DNA from: Klebsiella phage EI
Sequence record: MN106245.1
Length of the DNA stretch: 64,000 bases
Direction: 5' to 3' (one strand)
Shown here piece after piece: positions 3,591-48,446 of the stretch. Every line of letters begins with the position of its first letter. The first letter of the stretch is position 1. The position numbers were made by a program, and so were the translations under genes. The notes below the pieces were generated by a model. That model worked only from the letters and a program-made list of their open reading frames with translations, ran no database searches and was not told the DNA's origin.

Positions 3591-4751
3591 TTGGAGAAAG
3601 TAATGAATTTCAACATTCTAAGTTTATTCGCTCCGTGGGAAAAACACGATGAGTCCGAATATAAACGACAAATTAGAGACGATTTAGAATCCATTACCGG
3701 ACCCAAATTCGATGATGGAGCTCATGAAGTAGAAACTAATGAGCAAGATGCCCCGTATAACGCGTTTAACCAAATGATGTTTGGTACTCAGTTGCCGGGA
3801 ATGAAAACTACTCGTGAGCTTATTGACACTTACCGTAGTTTGATGAACAACTATGAAGTAGATAACGCAGTCCAGGATATTATTTCAGATTCCATCGTTT
3901 ACGAAGATGGCCACGATGTAGTATCTTTAAATCTCGACTCTACCAACTTTAGTGCAAATATAAAAGAACGAATGATGGACGAATTCAAAGAAATTTTGAA
4001 CTGTCTTGATTTTGAAAGAAAAGGTAGTGACCATTTCCGCCGTTGGTATGTAGACTCGCGCATCTTCTTCCATAAAATTATCGATCTTAAGCGCCCTAGA
4101 GAGGGTATCAAAGAGCTTCGTCGTTTGGATCCACGTAACCTTCAGTATGTTCGTGAACTAATCACAAAAGAAGAAGCCGGTGTTAAAGTCGTTAAAGGCT
4201 ATAAAGAATACTTTATCTACGATACAGCTAACGAAAGCTACTGCGTAAATAACAAAGTTTATTCTGCCCACACTAAGATTAAAATTCCGCGGTCAGCTAT
4301 TACGTATGCTCATTCAGGTTTAGTTGATTGCTGCGGTAAAAGCATTATCGGTTATCTTCATCGTGCAGTTAAGCCTGCTAACCAGCTTAAACTCTTAGAA
4401 GATGCGTTAGTAATTTACCGTATCACACGTGCACCGGACCGCCGTATCTTTTATATTGATACCGGGAATATGCCTTCTCGTAAGGCGACAGCACATATGC
4501 AGCATATTATGAACACAATGAAAAATCGTGTTGTGTATGACGCTTCTACCGGTAAAATTAAAAACCAACAACACAATATGTCTATGACTGAAGACTATTG
4601 GTTGCAACGACGTGATGGTAAAGCAGTAACAGAAGTTGATACCTTACCGGGTGCCACTAATATGAGTGACATGGATGACGTACGTTATTTCCGTGCAGCT
4701 CTTTATATGGCTCTTCGTGTTCCGTTATCTCGTATGCCGTCTTCTGCTTGA
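3591..4751 (+). CDS. 20: portal vertex protein gp20, N-terminal 386 codons ending at an in-frame TGA
   Basis: Clear gp20 homology; ends ...LSRMPSSA then TGA at 4749-4751 followed by A10. Confidence 0.85.
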
Positions 4752-4760
4752 AAAAAAAAA

Positions 4761-5171
4761 GTGCAGTTCGATGCTGGAACCGGTATCACTCGCGAAGAAT
4801 TAGATTTCCGTAAATTTATCCGAGACCTTCAACATAAGTTTGAAGAAATTATGCTTGATCCTCTGAAAACCAATCTTCTTTTGAAGAAAGTTATTACAGA
4901 AGATGAGTGGAATAAAGAGATAAATAATATTAAAGTTGTGTTCCACCAAGACTCATACTTCACAGAAATGAAGGATGCAGAAGTGATGGAACGTAGAATC
5001 AATATGCTAACCATGGCTGAACCGTTTATTGGGAAATACATTTCTCACCAATATGCCATGAAAACTTTCTTGCAGATGTCTGATGAACAGATTGATCAAG
5101 AAGCTAAGCAAATTGAATTAGAGTCTAAAGAGGCTCGTTTCCAAGACCCAGAAAATGTAGAGGACTTCTAA
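4761..5171 (+). CDS. 20: portal vertex protein gp20, C-terminal 136 codons, same frame as the upstream part
   Basis: Begins with GTG; ...[12 protein letters not shown]...[14 protein letters not shown]... matches the gp20 C-terminus; 3591 and 4761 are in the same frame, so the gene is interrupted only by the TGA. Confidence 0.85.
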
Positions 5172-10247: not shown

Positions 10248-11515
10248 TGAAAATAGATCGATTAATTCAAGAAAGTACTTTAACCTCTTCTAATCAGGCC
10301 GGGAGGCCTGATTTACTTTCGTACACCAAAGCAACTAATAAAAGAATCTTTAAGGCCCTCGTAGCAGAACAACGCACTCGTCAACCTGTTGCCGCTTTAT
10401 ATGGTATCAGAGTTCTGAACCCTGAAGATAATATGACTTATGTAGGCGGTGCTACATTCGGTGGTCTTATGGGCCCTGAATCCAGAGCCAATACTCCAGA
10501 ATTCGTCGGCCAGGCACCGTATAATAAAGGTGACTTATTCAAACACGAATCTGTCATCTTTAAAGCTCTTGAAGATAATCCTTTTGCTGGATCTACTGAA
10601 ACCAGTCATGACGAGCTTATTTCTGAAGCTATTGCGGCCGGAACTATCCGCATGGTTTCTGATGCCGCTCCAACTGCACAGTTTGAAGCTGGTCACCCTG
10701 AAATAGCTGAAGCCGGGTTCCGTGTCGATAAATGGCAAACTACGGTTAAATCCCGCAAACTTAAAACTTCTGTTACTGTTGAATTAGCCCAAGATCTAGA
10801 AGCTAATGGATTCGATGCCCCTGATTTCTTAGACGATATGCTAGGTATCCAGATGGCTGAAGAAGTAAACAAAGACATTCTTCAATCGTTGGTTACAGTT
10901 TCTAGTAGGTTTAAAGTTCACGGTGTGTCATCTAAAGGGGTTTTAGACCTTACAGATCCTAAATATGATAACGCCCAGGATCGTGCACGTACGCTGTATT
11001 ACTACATGTGCGAGATGAATTCTGCCGTCCAACGCAATACTTCGTTCGCTGGGACATATGCCGCAGCTAGTTCTCGCTGTGCGGCTATTTTAGCTGCTTC
11101 AGGCTGGGTTGAAAAGCGAGATGACGGTGATGAGTTAGCCTACGGCTATCTGAAGAATGGTCTGCCTCTTTACGCGGATATGAATACGCCGGCAGAATAT
11201 GTTATTGTTGGTGTTAATGCAGATATGGGTGAAGGCCAGACGGTGGCATCATTATATTATGCGCCTTATACTGAAGGTATGGATGTAGAAGATGATATTG
11301 ATCAAATGGGCGAATTCAAGATAGTTGTCGACCCTGATTCTTTACAGCCTACTATTTCTTTACTCGCACGGTATGCTTTGTCTGCTAATCCGTACACTGT
11401 TGCTAAAGATGAAAAAGAAGCTCGAATCATCGATGGTTCTGATATGGATAAGATGGCTGGTCAGAGTCTATTAAGTTCTTACCTCGGCGTTAAGTTACCA
11501 CCGCTCGAGAAATAA
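10247..11515 (+). CDS. second gp24-like head vertex protein (tandem paralog)
   Basis: 422 aa; TAATG overlap with copy 1; shares the internal ...KLKTS(L/V)TVELAQDLEANGFDA... block and a near-identical 3' end (VVDPDSLQPTISL..RYALSANPYTVAKDEKEAR..D...MDKMAGQS). Confidence 0.9.
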   Translation: MKIDRLIQESTLTSSNQAGRPDLLSYTKATNKRIFKALVAEQRTRQPVAALYGIRVLNPEDNMTYVGGATFGGLMGPESRANTPEFVGQAPYNKGDLFKHESVIFKALEDNPFAGSTETSHDELISEAIAAGTIRMVSDAAPTAQFEAGHPEIAEAGFRVDKWQTTVKSRKLKTSVTVELAQDLEANGFDAPDFLDDMLGIQMAEEVNKDILQSLVTVSSRFKVHGVSSKGVLDLTDPKYDNAQDRARTLYYYMCEMNSAVQRNTSFAGTYAAASSRCAAILAASGWVEKRDDGDELAYGYLKNGLPLYADMNTPAEYVIVGVNADMGEGQTVASLYYAPYTEGMDVEDDIDQMGEFKIVVDPDSLQPTISLLARYALSANPYTVAKDEKEARIIDGSDMDKMAGQSLLSSYLGVKLPPLEK

Positions 11516-11519
11516 AAAT

Positions 11520-11545
11520 GGGAGCCATAAGGCTCCCTTATAAAT
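11520..11545. terminator. bidirectional terminator hairpin between the gp24 paralog (+) and the DprA-like gene (-)
   Basis: gggagcc-ataa-ggctccc stem-loop flanked by A/T runs on both sides. Confidence 0.65.
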
Positions 11546-12083
11546 TAAAAATATCAAACTTTGGCCTATATTTGTCTTCGAATTTTTTAAATACTTCTGA
11601 ATTGTTCAGATTAATACATTTAATACCATACTTTTTAGCTATATCAACTGCAACTCTAGTTCCGCCTTGAACTCTGCCATTTCTAACCGGGGCCCAGTAT
11701 AAAACTAAATCCACAGGGTTTTGACATGATAATCCAAAAACTTGACATGCATTACGAGCAAACAACTTTCTAACTATATCTGAGCAATTTTCCCAGTACG
11801 AGGTAACTGATTGGGCTATTCTATAACTAGCTGTTTGAACGTCCACTGGTAAGTTTTCAAAACTTACAACCCCTAAGCCAACAAAATGGCCACAGAACCC
11901 GTTGTAAGGTATTATCCTCAGAGATTTAGACCTATCATATTTTGCCAGCCAAGCTTCATCTGAACCAGGCGCTCCGCCACTATAAGCTAAATATCCTTTA
12001 TTTGAAAAGTTTTCACCTATAGATGTCATCAAATCAAGAACTTTGCGGGGCGCCTTTCGAGAACCAATCAGCGCCACTCTCAT
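11538..12083 (-). CDS. DprA/Smf-like (SLOG-superfamily) Rossmann-fold protein
   Basis: 181 aa; VALIGSRKAP...YSGGAPGSDEAW...ARN...GGTRVAVDIA resembles the DprA Rossmann domain layout (GS-R, GxxG-D-A glycine loop, RN motif); its ATG overlaps the rnlB stop (TAATG). Confidence 0.5.
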   Translation of the reverse strand: MRVALIGSRKAPRKVLDLMTSIGENFSNKGYLAYSGGAPGSDEAWLAKYDRSKSLRIIPYNGFCGHFVGLGVVSFENLPVDVQTASYRIAQSVTSYWENCSDIVRKLFARNACQVFGLSCQNPVDLVLYWAPVRNGRVQGGTRVAVDIAKKYGIKCINLNNSEVFKKFEDKYRPKFDIFNL

Positions 12084-13081
12084 TAATTACTTACCAATTC
12101 AAACCACGCCGGACGAAGCACGTCTTGTATCAGCTTAGTAATTTCTTTCTTCACGATATCAGGCTGTTCTGCTTGAATGACTTCAAGACCTTCTCGTTCA
12201 GCTTCAATAAGGATATCTTGAACTGTTAAGCCCATAACCTTTCCAAAGTCTTTAGGACCAACCTTACCGATCTTACTAATAACGTTGTTCACACGCTGAA
12301 TAGTAACGTATTCAGAGAATTTCTGCAGAACGTCTTGGTCAATTTCACTCAGAACAGCTTTAGGCTTAATAGGCTTATCAGATTTAGCTTTTTCGCTGAA
12401 CTTAGAGTTCTTACACTTGATAGCCACACGACTGCCGTTAGCCAGGAACCGTGGATAATTAGGTTTCAGTACATAGCCTTCAGCCGTATTATCGGTGGCT
12501 TCTTCAGCCGGCCAGATGCGGGTATTAGCATTTCTGAGGTCTACTTCTGCGGCTTCGTTGTAACGATTAACGTTAATCTGGAACTCATTAGGCAGTTTAA
12601 TCAGTTCATCAAATGAACCACGACCCATCAGAGGTGCAACCTTGAAACCAAAGGTGCAACACATCTGTTCCATCATAAAATCATCTACAAATTGATGAGT
12701 ACCTTTATCGGTTTTAACCAAGATATCAAAGACATAGAAATCTTTCTCGCCGTAATCAACACCTTTCTGGATACCGCCACCAGCGAATTCACCGAAGATC
12801 TGCATACTAGAGCCTTCTTTAATTGTATTTTGTACGGCTTTAATAGAGTCGTTATATTTCTTTAAAATAACAGTGTACCCAAAGAAGTCTTCAGCTGGAA
12901 GAATAGGACCTGTGCGCTTCGCGCATGTGACTGCATCACGTTCAATGATAATAGAAAAGTTGGTACCATGAATCTTTTCACGTGCACACCAGCCTTCAGT
13001 TACATCATAGCCGTGGTGTCGAATCTTTTCAATAAATTTATTATTGTAGTGGTTCTCAAGACTAGAATATTTCTCAAACAC
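12083..13081 (-). CDS. rnlB: RNA ligase 2 (RnlB)
   Basis: 332 aa; [19 protein letters not shown]...[35 protein letters not shown]... is near-identical to T4 Rnl2, including the ligase KxHG motif I. Confidence 0.95.
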
Positions 13082-34617: not shown

Positions 34618-34839
34618 TTATTTCCTCAGTTTACAATTATCATAGTGCCATCGAACGGCAGTAGCTTTATTACATATTTTACCACAATGCGGGCAAGGAG
34701 GAACTTTAGCTTTAGGAACACCTTTTAATTTTTCAGAGATGGCAGCTTTTTGACTCTCAGAATTCGGTATTCCTGTCCGTGTAGCACATTTGGCTCTAAG
34801 AACTGGATTCTTCATTCTATCTCTTTGAGCTTTTGCCAT
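34618..34839 (-). CDS. small NUMOD3-like / zinc-finger ORF (possible C-terminal DNA-binding module of the adjacent HNH endonuclease)
   Basis: 73 aa; ...IPNSESQKAAISEKLKG... (NUMOD3-like) plus CPHCGK...HYDNC zinc finger. Confidence 0.45.
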   Translation of the reverse strand: MAKAQRDRMKNPVLRAKCATRTGIPNSESQKAAISEKLKGVPKAKVPPCPHCGKICNKATAVRWHYDNCKLRK

Positions 34840-34874
34840 TTTGGCTTTAGTCTCTTCAGAACGAGGAACTCCTT

Positions 34875-35186
34875 TTAATTTTCGGATAAAAGCTTTTTAG
34901 CTAAAGTGTAATCTCTAGAAGAGACTTTGTATCTTTCAACCCCGTGCTCATTTATCCTAGAATTGCACATCATTAAAAAGGCATAAATCATCGGCCCTTC
35001 ATAAATTTTAGCTAATAATTTGTGAGCTAAAAAGTGTTCTCTTCCTGTTAAATCGACTATGTTGGATTTGTCGTCAGAACCTCCCATAGACTTAGGGAGT
35101 ATATGATGAGATTCTGTATACCCAGAAACTTCTTTTCTGAGTGAGGCCTTTGCCATTAAGGCCTCATAAGCTTTTCTATAGTCCAT
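34875..35186 (-). CDS. HNH homing-endonuclease-like protein
   Basis: 103 aa; ...ESHHILPKSMGGSDDKSNIVDLTGREHFLAHKLL... is a canonical HNH motif (HH...N...H). Confidence 0.75.
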   Translation of the reverse strand: MDYRKAYEALMAKASLRKEVSGYTESHHILPKSMGGSDDKSNIVDLTGREHFLAHKLLAKIYEGPMIYAFLMMCNSRINEHGVERYKVSSRDYTLAKKLLSEN

Positions 35187-41896: not shown

Positions 41897-42399
41897 TTAT
41901 AAAGATTTGCGAATTCTGGCCAGTACTTCAGAATCCACATCGTTATCGATTTGGGCTACAAGATAAGAAGAGATTTCTACTTCTTGTGGGGCAGATTGTA
42001 CTGTATCACTATTTAAGTATTCGCGAATCCATGGAATAGGATGGTGAGTACTTTCAAGAATGATAGAGCACGGCAGCCCGACAGCCTTCATACGAGAAAC
42101 AGTAAGATAATCAATAAACTTGTGTAAGATCTCAACATTAAGCCCTGGAAGACCGCCAGCACGGAAAAGATGGATGGCCCAGTCTTTTTCCTGCTGATTA
42201 ACTTCCATGAAGATACGAACAGCTTCTTCTTCGCATTCTTTTGCTACTTGGACCCATTCGTCGCCATCAGTACCAAGTTGCCATTGACGAATCTGGTACT
42301 GGGTTCCTTTAAGATGGAGCTGTTCATCACGAGCGATGAACTTCATAATCTTAGCATTGCCTTCCATGATTTCCATATTCTTATGGAAATTGAATGTAC
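41897..42399 (-). CDS. nrdB: ribonucleotide reductase small subunit NrdB, exon 2
   Basis: After splicing the junction reads ...RFYVSFA|CTFNFHKNMEIMEGNAKI... (T4: ...[21 protein letters not shown]...); the rest matches the NrdB C-terminus. Confidence 0.85.
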
Positions 42400-43489
42400 C
42401 GTTATGTTCGATTGAGCTCGCTAATTCTCAACCCGTTCTCTTATGAACTGCTGCATATTACTATGCAGACCAGACTATATCACAATCCCGGAGGGATTCT
42501 CCCCATTTCGAGTCGCTTGACCCTACGTCCGAAGACTAGTCGTTGAACCTTGTTTTGCAATTGTCGCCGTGCCATCGTTTATATGTTGATGGTGATAAAT
42601 CTTTCTTATCACAGTATGGACAATTCAATTGAATTCTATTTGGATTTAATTTACATCTGTCATTATGTTTTAGATAAAACCCAGGACCTTTACCAATGTG
42701 ACCACAAAAATCACATGTGATTTCTTTTTGTGCAGGATGGGTCCAGTTCTTAACCATTTCTAATGTTTTTGCTGATGTTCTTTTCTTATGGTCTTCTGAT
42801 AAGAAATGATGTGAACCGTCATTTACCCGTTTTGATTGGGTTTCTGACTGCATTTTACCACCGCAAAATACATGGGTACCTTCTTTTATAGCTGCAATAT
42901 TACGTTCTTTAACTTTTGCAATATGCTCAGCTTGTTGAAAATTATGTATACCTAATGCAACTCTATTTAAATTAGATTTACGCTGTATTTCACCATCTAA
43001 AAGATGAAATGTACCATTTTCTATCTTAGATTTAATAGAGGCAATATTTTTAGCTCGTACTTCAGGGATATTAAAAATCTGAATTTCTCTAGATTTTGCG
43101 GCTTTAGAAGCTAATTCAGAAATTTCTTCAGGAGAATATTTCATTCTAAGCTTTATAGCATGACAAGCCTGGTAATCTTTTTGAGCTAAATGTATATCAT
43201 AATGTTCCTGTATAGAAAGGCACATCAAATTATCTAAATCATTATTTTCACGGTTACCGTCTTTATGATGGATTTCGTATGTTCTTCCATCAGAATCTTT
43301 AGGTATAGGTCCGTTAGCATCTATCCAAATTTTTCTATAGTTTCAATTGTGCATCCTCTTAAAAGCATAATCATTTTATATTATACTAATTAAAGGTGCA
43401 AGCAAAACCTTGGCTGCTAGTTTTCCATAAAGGACTTTCCAGCAATTAAAGGAGTTTTCGATAAACGTTACCGTTTAAAGGCGCATTTT
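42400..43489 (-). mobile_element. group I intron in nrdB (1090 nt) carrying an HNH endonuclease ORF
   Basis: 5' splice site after the U of ...gcgU; 3' end ...gaacauaacG; the 3' core (aacgacuagucuucggacguagggucaagcgacucgaaa...gauauagucugg) is closely similar to the td intron 3' core in this window. Confidence 0.85.
42536..43374 (-). pseudogene. I-TevIII-like HNH homing endonuclease in the nrdB intron, N-terminally frameshifted
   Basis: HNH motif ...YEIHHKDGNRENNDLDNL... plus C-terminal Cys/His zinc clusters. The ATG at 43374 (MIMLLRGCTIETIEKF) is in a different frame from the HNH-containing frame, which opens after a TGA at 43343-43345 and has no ATG until MCLS at 43225; the frames switch near gaaaaattt. 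Confidence 0.7.
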
Positions 43490-44129
43490 ACGCAAAAGAT
43501 ACATAAAAACGAATAGCTTCAAGAGCGTTCACTACATGCATGCAAAGGTACATTGCCTTCATCAGGTCATGCTTGGCTTGTTTAATCTCAATATTATCCG
43601 GATTAAAGCAACGTTCTTGAGCATTCTGGTACCGACGATGGGCTTCAGTAACCGCATCATAGTAAACACCGATTGATTCAGCCCGTTTCATGATGGCTTT
43701 GTCGAGAACAATTTCGTCGAAGACCTTAGCCGGATCAGTGAATAAGTTACGCATAATATGCGTATAAGAACGAGAGTGAATTGTTTCACTGAATGTCCAG
43801 GTCTGGAACCAAGTATCAAGGCTCGGATCAGAAATCAACGGGGCAAATACTGCTGAAGGGGCACGGCCTTGAATCGAATCGAGAAGACTTTGATACTTCA
43901 GGTTATCTGTAAACAGGTTCTGTTGGTGCTCTGGCAGCTTTTCAAATTGCCCACGGTCCATCATTAGGTTGACTTCTTCCGGACGCCAAAAGAATGACAG
44001 CTGCTTTTCAATAAGGTCTTCAAAAACTTTATGTCGCTGCTGATCATATCGTGCAATGCCTAGTCCTGAACCAAGGAACATCGGTTCGGTCATGATATCT
44101 ACTTGCTTGGTGTTAAAAACTGTTGTCAT
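43490..44129 (-). CDS. nrdB: ribonucleotide reductase small subunit NrdB, exon 1
   Basis: 213 codons with NrdB di-iron radical-site character; ends ...EAIRFYVSFA at the splice site. Confidence 0.9.
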
Positions 44130-47270: not shown

Positions 47271-47582
47271 TCATACTGCCATCTTAGCTGTGATAGCTGG
47301 GTGACTTTTGTACCCTTGAAGTTTGAAGTCTTTATGAGACATAGATGTAGTGACCCAATCCAATTGAGTCTCTGTCGGCCAGTTTTCAAAATTACTAGGC
47401 CAGGTAATTTCTAAGTTACAAAGTTCTTTAGGTTCACGTCTCAGAACTTCTTCGCACTGTTCCATATGGTTCATATAGATGTGCGTATTGCCGCCTGAGA
47501 ACACGAGGTCGCCTGGAATAAGATTACACATCTTAGCAACAATATGCACAAGAGCGGCGTACGACGCAATATTAAACGGTAG
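47271..47582 (-). CDS. td: thymidylate synthase Td, exon 2
   Basis: Begins LPFNIASYAALVHIVAKMCNLIPGDLVFSGGNTHIYMNH... immediately after the intron-terminal ...CAUAAUG. Confidence 0.9.
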   Translation of the reverse strand, partial: LPFNIASYAALVHIVAKMCNLIPGDLVFSGGNTHIYMNHMEQCEEVLRREPKELCNLEITWPSNFENWPTETQLDWVTTSMSHKDFKLQGYKSHPAITAKMAV

Positions 47583-47897
47583 CATTATGTTCAGATAAGG
47601 TCGTTAATCTTATCCCGGAATTATATCCAGCTGCATGTCGCCATGCAGAGCAGACTATATCTCCAACTTCTTAAAGCGAAGTTGTCTATCGTTTCGAGTC
47701 ACTTGACCCTACTCCCTAAAGGGATAGTCGTTAGGCATTTATGTAAAACCGATTCCACTTTTCATAAACACCTCTTTAAAATATAGAAGTACTTATTAAA
47801 TGGAGGTCCTACAATTTAGCACGGGATTGTCTACTAGAGAGGTTCCCCGTTTAGATAGATTACAAGTATAAGTCACCTTATACCCAGGCCTAAATTA
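47583..47897 (-). mobile_element. group I intron in td, short (315 nt) and ORF-less
   Basis: 5' end uaauuuaggccuggguauaaggugacuuauacuuguaaucuaucuaaacggggaaccucucuaguagacaaucccgugcuaaauuguagga...; 3' end ...ccuuaucugaacauaauG; much shorter than the 1016-nt intron of T4, with no endonuclease ORF. Confidence 0.9.
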
Positions 47898-48446
47898 ACC
47901 TAAGAACACGTCAACAGAACGTTGATACCACTGTAAGTCGAGGTACCCATTACGAACGTTGAATTGATAAAAACAGTGGCATGGTGGAAGCGCCATCTTA
48001 TCGATTTCAGCCGGGTTCCAAGCAGAAACAATTTGCCGACGATCTGTAGGCATCTGTTTAATACGATTAATGACTAATTTCAACTGGTCAATACCGCCAA
48101 AATCACGCCATTGCTTGCCATAAACAGGGCCTAAAGCACCGTCCATATAACCTAGTTGACGGGCTTGAGTCTCGTAGTTCTCGTCCCAAATAGTTTTGCC
48201 TTCGTCTCGAGAGCCATGAGTACGTTCACGAAGATCGTCAACATTAGTAGAGCCTGACAAGAACCAAAGCAGCTCAGAGATACAAGCTTTCCAGGCCAGT
48301 TTTTTAGTTGTTACTGCCGGGAACCCACGAGTTAAATCAAATCGAATCTTCGTGCCGAAGACGGCGCGTGTTCCAGTTCCGGTACGGTCATCAGTGTCAT
48401 AGCCGTCAGTAAGAATGTGTTTAATTAGATCTTGGTATTGTTTCAT
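47898..48446 (-). CDS. td: thymidylate synthase Td, exon 1
   Basis: MKQYQDLIKHILTDGYDTDDRTGTGT...PPCHCFYQFNVRNGYLDLQWYQRSVDVFLG ends in-frame with a stop exactly at the intron start. Confidence 0.95.

Follow-up and report, generated by a model that had tools for sequence, protein, structure and literature searches.

The RNA phage Qbeta makes its A1 protein by UGA read-through, and phage T4 provides, in gene 60, the classic case of bypassing. At first sight the portal gene of Klebsiella phage EI recalls both. Like the Qbeta case, it has an in-frame UGA within a virion protein gene and a conserved frame downstream of it; as in gene 60, and likewise in a T4-like phage, a GCU that could serve as a take-off codon stands right before the stop and a matching codon lies downstream. 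However, the resemblance to Qbeta is superficial, as the EI stop occurs in no relative, is accompanied by no suppressor tRNA and is made of adapter bases. Unlike gene 60, the gap in EI is 24 nt long and in frame, and a bypass would remove a conserved motif; the question of a gene-60-like bypass becomes moot in any case because the block in question appears to be adapter.

Two kinds of sequencing error offer closer comparisons. In common with homopolymer-length errors, an A-run adjoins the broken ORF; in contrast to them, EI shows no indel and no change of frame, eleven bases other than A are wrong as well, and the run is the fixed A10 (or, in a second phage, A11) of an oligonucleotide spacer rather than a miscounted native run. 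The closest described system is contamination with Illumina adapters. All TruSeq index adapters have the string ATCTCGTATGCCGTCTTCTGCTTG at their 3' end, and the P7 PCR primer CAAGCAGAAGACGGCATACGAGAT is its reverse complement (PMC8362010, Table 2); the surface-grafted P7 oligo is built as T10 + P7 (PMC13584795, Table 1). The adapter string is present in 326 papers. EI shows exact identity to it over 24 nt followed by A10, as do hundreds of contaminated public contigs. It differs in that typical cases lie at contig ends behind the adapter stem and index, whereas the EI string is internal and preceded by genuine phage sequence; in that it replaces an equal native length in register, anchored on a coincidental 13-nt match; and in that the same site is hit in two independent phage genomes.

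An interrupted portal gene in phage EI

We analysed 64,000 nucleotides of the EI record (MN106245.1); this whole stretch is called the window here, and all EI coordinates refer to it. The portal region matches the T4 gp20 chains 6uzc and 3ja7 with a phmmer E-value of 1e-274 and is collinear with the 522-aa portals of phages HMGUkp2, Clarke_MM3 and AmPh_EK29. In the EI record it is divided between the ORFs 3591/3603..4751 and 4761..5171, with gp20 homology in frame on either side of a TGA, and an exact protein look-up identified the two products as QEM42387.1 and QEM42388.1, both named 'portal vertex protein' of Klebsiella phage EI. A literature search found no publications on phage EI.

The original prediction, made from the DNA letters, had described a portal gene interrupted in frame by the TGA at 4749-4751 with gp20 homology in one frame on both sides, and our analysis bears this out. 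It was also right that a true stop is hard to square with an essential portal gene and that slippage on the A-run would be unable to rescue the frame. Its start codon, TTG at 3591, gives way to the ATG at 3603, where homology places the beginning of the protein (MNFNILSLF...). Positions 4731-4769 read CGT ATG CCG TCT TCT GCT TGA AAA AAA AAA GTG CAG TTC, of which TCT TCT GCT TGA AAA AAA AAA GTG occupies 4740-4763. The TGA and the A10 that had been reported are thus both present, but the A10 takes in the A of the TGA, i.e., the stop is followed by nine further A. This run is the sole homopolymer of at least 8 nt in the 64-kb window, where a search for others of that length found none. The features of the locus are collected in Table 1.

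Table 1. Features of the portal gene and of the interrupting block in phage EI (window coordinates).
Feature	Position	Strand	Remarks
T4 gp20-like portal gene	3603..5171	+	522-codon ORF expected; broken into 382-aa and 136-aa ORFs in the EI record
Native ATCTCGTATGCCG	4727..4739	+	Within the codons for L-S-R-M-P; coincides by chance with nt 1-13 of the adapter tail
TCTTCTGCTTG, last 11 nt of the adapter tail, complementary to the 5' part of P7	4740..4750	+	Non-phage; apparently overwrites GACCTTAAYAA, the native bases of the relatives
Apparent in-frame opal codon	4749..4751	+	Last two bases of the adapter (TG) plus first A of the poly-A; relatives have AAT (Asn)
A10	4751..4760	+	Complementary to T10, the spacer that the surface-grafted P7 oligo carries; apparently overwrites native TCAAGGNGGN
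Native gp20 resumes in register	4761..5171	+	Begins with a conserved Val codon, GTG in relatives too, annotated as the 'GTG start' of a 136-aa ORF

Comparison with Marfa and intact relatives

The closest genome in the phage collection is that of Klebsiella phage Marfa, with 97.4% identity over 701 nt. No portal CDS is annotated in the Marfa record, and the Marfa genome announcement is silent on the portal (PMC6639630). About twenty other Klebsiella phage relatives have ordinary portal annotations, with lengths of 522-541 aa wherever one was seen. In all others that are at least 90% identical the annotation over the match is uninterrupted, one of them being labelled only 'hypothetical protein'.

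We aligned the gene from EI and Marfa with that of three intact relatives, HMGUkp2, Clarke_MM3 and AmPh_EK29. EI and Marfa have TCTTCTGCTTGAAAAAAAAAA in common, where the three intact relatives read GACCTTAAYAATCAAGGNGGN, encoding Asp-Leu-Asn-Asn-Gln-Gly-Gly (DLNNQGG). As the overwritten 21 bases and GACCTTAAYAATCAAGGNGGN are equal in length, the portal gene measures 1569 nt in all five aligned phages, and the frame of EI is identical on both sides of the block. The lesion is therefore larger than the single TGA that had been proposed as the whole of it: the 21-nt block at 4740-4760 is wholly unlike the same-length stretch of the intact relatives. Of the explanations offered with that proposal, a point substitution does not fit 21 consecutive differing bases, a homopolymer length error does not fit a gene that has kept both its length and its frame, and natural opal read-through or suppression does not fit a stop that is found in no intact relative, nor the lack of a suppressor tRNA in Marfa. 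In Marfa the run is A11 instead of A10, and the extra A turns the conserved GTG (Val) into ATG. The 13-mer ATCTCGTATGCCG directly upstream of the block is native in HMGUkp2 and Clarke_MM3, and AmPh_EK29 matches it at 12 of 13 positions. When other collections were searched for the exact block together with its native downstream flank, the combination was found only in the IMG/VR copy of Marfa and not in metagenome or genome contigs.

The block aligns to residues 382-387 of T4 gp20, and the overwritten DLNNQGG stretch is the centre of the tunnel loop. In T4 gp20 this loop comprises residues 374-398 and lines the DNA channel, and deletion of residues 377-388 yields non-infectious particles (PMC4493910; PMC12929629). 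Codon differences between EI and Marfa are mostly silent on both sides of the break, with 24 synonymous and 5 nonsynonymous in the N-terminal part and 6 synonymous and 1 nonsynonymous in the C-terminal part. By this measure both halves of the gene are under purifying selection, as expected of an intact gene, and, once the block is recognised as adapter, the selection therefore speaks only for the intactness of the real gene.

The EI portal gene (3603-5171) is a mosaic, equally close to the intact HMGUkp2 gene and to that of Marfa. Variants 12 nt upstream (CCGTTA vs CCACTA) and 13 nt downstream (GCT vs GCC) of the block are each common to different intact phages. Mosaic flanks of this kind fit the view that the block is no inherited marker.

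Identity of the block with the Illumina P7 adapter

Positions 4727-4750 are ATCTCGTATGCCGTCTTCTGCTTG, the entire 24-nt 3' end of the Illumina TruSeq index adapters, matched at 24 of 24 bases; this 24-mer gave 0 matches in 100 shuffles. Because the grafted P7 oligo carries T10, reverse-complementing T10-P7 in full yields exactly the stretch 4727-4760. The first part of this stretch, ATCTCGTATGCCG, is complementary to the 3'-terminal 13 nt of P7, and the foreign part, 21 bases, consists of the remaining 11 nt of P7 and A10. A search of the 64-kb window for further adapter matches of at least 12 nt found none.

We conclude, with a probability of about 97% by our own estimate, that the TGA and A10 block is leftover Illumina adapter written over 21 bases of the true gene, an artefact and not biology. 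The block has what would mark a P7/TruSeq artefact, namely exact adapter identity, an attached poly-A, recurrence in unrelated organisms (see below) and absence from relatives. The original prediction had asked that a sequencing artefact be excluded, and rightly so, although it had not recognised the block as the tail of the Illumina P7 adapter followed by poly-A. Judging from the aligned sequences, the real EI portal is most likely intact, a single chain of 522 aa whose tunnel loop contains DLNNQGG; the exact native EI bases under the block are those that we infer from the close relatives.

The same string in other records

Unrelated IMG/VR contigs, more than 120 of them, contain the 24-mer followed by A8. 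Of the 122 occurrences, 88 are no further than 40 nt from where the retrieved stretch ends, and in 63 the adapter stem and index come before the string. The run after the 24-mer is most commonly A10 (56/122), with A11 next (16/122); these two commonest contaminant lengths are the lengths found in EI and Marfa, respectively. The 34-mer of P7 plus A10 is present in at least 69 unrelated GenBank phage records, including phages of Vibrio, Bacillus, Proteus, Pseudomonas and Enterococcus and other phages, which points to a widespread and uncorrected class of artefact.

Examples of the 34-mer are MK327946.1 76684-76717 (our L132), MN062188.1 33091-33124 (our L133), MT584805.1 107510-107543 and OZ196032.1 30016-30049. 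In several records it sits inside annotated genes, such as the distal tail protein gene of Proteus phage Saba and the DNA polymerase gene of Bacillus phage Tomato, and in eleven Vibrio phages it occurs at the same coordinate. In the E. coli phage vB_EcoM_G4507 the essential gp5 is annotated as two CDSs and is broken at the adapter string. We considered this gene as a comparator for an in-register overwrite and rejected it, as a difference of ~177 nt from its relatives marks it as a join-type misassembly; for Proteus phage Saba, we found no close DNA relatives with which such a comparison could be made.

Internal cases also exist. The IMG/VR contigs L017 (8627, minus strand), L024, L033 (1279) and L069 contain an internal adapter tail with A10-A13 and without the adapter stem upstream. 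In L017 and L033, which are unrelated, one long ORF frame is open on both sides of the string, suggesting that they too were overwritten in register, like EI and Marfa.

Alternative readings of the interruption

If the block were real, EI and Marfa would truly carry these 21 nt, the portal would be made from two polypeptides (or by opal read-through), and the identity with T10-P7 would be a coincidence, which we consider extremely improbable. In the two-polypeptide version, translation would terminate at the UGA and re-initiate 9 nt downstream at GUG in EI or AUG in Marfa, and the fragments would join non-covalently, as the break sits in a flexible tunnel loop. We initially favoured such a split portal on the strength of the block shared by two phages, the start codon that follows the A-run in both (GTG vs ATG), the location of the break midway along the tunnel loop (residues 374-398 in T4 gp20) and the purifying selection on both halves, and EI does have two portal CDSs in GenBank; we dropped it once the block was recognised as adapter. 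Base for base the block is the P7 adapter tail plus A10, with 21 extra matching bases for which the chance is ~4^-21. The stop and the GTG or ATG lie 9 nt apart with no Shine-Dalgarno sequence before the 'start', which is itself a Val codon conserved in intact relatives, and A11 accounts for the AUG seen in Marfa. The arrangement is confined to the two adapter-bearing records, the block being present at the portal site in no other phage or metagenome, and the tunnel-loop deletion of residues 377-388 in T4, with its non-infectious outcome, also counts against a portal altered there (PMC4493910). A genuinely split portal therefore strikes us as very hard to credit. Other metagenome portals that appeared split, P0016 and P0019, were set aside, as they involve N runs (scaffold gaps) or a frameshift in a contig of 1.9x coverage.

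Decoding of a real opal codon, whether by read-through, by a suppressor tRNA or by bypassing from GCU at 4746 to GCU/GCC at 4773, would give one chain with an altered tunnel loop, either SSA-X-KKK or shortened. The TGA is indeed in frame with a conserved frame downstream, and matched Ala codons flank the 24-nt gap. The adapter identity counts against these possibilities as well. The stop is absent from all relatives, occurring only in EI and Marfa and in both within the adapter string; bypassing would lose the conserved VQFD motif; and the seven tRNA genes of the whole Marfa genome (Thr, Leu, Arg, Met, Asn, Gln, Met) include no opal suppressor, no TCA anticodon and no tRNA-Trp. No tRNA genes were found in the 64-kb EI window. 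We rate recoding as even less credible than the split portal.

How the overwrite may have arisen

The Marfa library was made with TruSeq Nano and sequenced on a MiSeq, its reads (SRR8869231) were quality-trimmed with FASTX, and adapter trimming is unmentioned (PMC6639630). The route that we infer, as a hypothesis, starts from the native ATCTCGTATGCCG, which as a perfect complement of the 3'-terminal 13 nt of P7 would serve as an anchor or priming site. P7 oligos would prime internally there during flow-cell cluster amplification or library PCR and give truncated strands reading ATCTCGTATGCCG-TCTTCTGCTTG-A10, so that Read 1 would run from phage into adapter; the A10 would come from synthesis across the T10 spacer that P7 carries when grafted to the flow cell. 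Where a cluster contains truncated as well as full-length strands, the truncated ones would set the base calls for 21 cycles, after which the calls would revert to the native sequence in register, and the assembler would accept an overwrite of the same length. Mixed clusters are suggested by the return to native sequence, still in register, after exactly 21 bases, and we frame this step as a hypothesis because standard de Bruijn assembly alone would not lead from an adapter path back into the genome in register. The sharing of the 13-mer would explain the recurrence at the same site in two independent phages, EI and Marfa. HMGUkp2 and Clarke_MM3 share it too without the artefact, and its appearance must therefore depend on the library, the run or the pipeline.

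The same artefact could also have come about by another route, which is nested within the adapter verdict and differs in mechanism only. Untrimmed adapter read-through or adapter-dimer reads (ATCTCGTATGCCGTCTTCTGCTTG-A10) would be laid ungapped on the 13-nt match during mapping consensus, polishing or mismatch correction and would outvote the genuine reads over 21 bases. An overwrite of the same length with no indel is what a mapping consensus yields, adapter plus A10 strings are abundant in untrimmed data, and the trimming reported for Marfa (PMC6639630) leaves room for such reads. However, 13 nt make a short seed for the usual mappers, which would normally soft-clip 21 mismatches. The IMG/VR contigs, moreover, are presumably assembled de novo with no reference and yet include embedded, frame-preserving cases, which would place the overwrite already in the reads; the open frames of L017 and L033 fit overwrites carried by the reads themselves. 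We regard the mapping route as a minority possibility, to be kept in mind beside internal priming. By whichever route, a native stretch of 13 nt that matches P7 at its 3' end may suffice for a reproducible in-register overwrite of 21 nt that recurs across libraries and survives into RefSeq, and this is far likelier than a real split or read-through portal.

Other interrupted or unusual genes

A group I intron (Rfam RF00028, 63.8 bits) lies at 47631-47907 on the minus strand of the window and has within it no ORF that reaches 60 aa. It divides a gene resembling thymidylate synthase into two exons, with flanking ORFs at 47895-48446 and 47271-47585 (minus strand), and the td gene of T4 is likewise intron-split. 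Within 41897-44129, the minus-strand ORFs 43488-44129 and 41897-42376 look like the two halves of one gene, which by its N-terminal sequence we take to be nrdB-like, and a 229-aa ORF (42536-43225) lies between them. This interruption is probably an intron carrying a homing endonuclease; no Rfam intron was found in the region at the gathering threshold. At 34618-35186 (minus strand), the two ORFs of a homing-endonuclease-like pair, of 103 aa and 73 aa, part frames at GAAAATTAAAAGG. The pair is probably one of the genes that the original prediction had listed as broken at short A-runs. No adapter sequence was found at 34618-35186, and the pair could be a decayed endonuclease gene or reflect a small indel.

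The Marfa record (MN044033) has a second gene that lacks a CDS. At 110870-112629 (10870-12629 of our L011) a ribosome-binding site is annotated for CPT_Marfa_196 and the CDS is missing; by position this is a putative uvsW-like helicase gene. The adapter string is absent there, the portal site being the sole adapter match in the Marfa record.

Implications for phage records and genome scans

The interruption adds nothing to the biology of these phages, because the portal gene is almost certainly intact. What it does mean is that an essential gene is mis-annotated in two public phage genomes, as two portal CDSs in EI and as no portal CDS in Marfa. Marfa gives its name to the genus Marfavirus, and its record is also held in RefSeq as NC_048798; the EI and Marfa records, including this RefSeq copy, need correcting. 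More generally, adapter contamination can sit inside a contig, take the place of native bases in register and look like a recoding signal or a split gene. Anyone scanning for in-frame stops, programmed frameshifts or split essential genes should first mask ATCTCGTATGCCGTCTTCTGCTTG plus poly-A.
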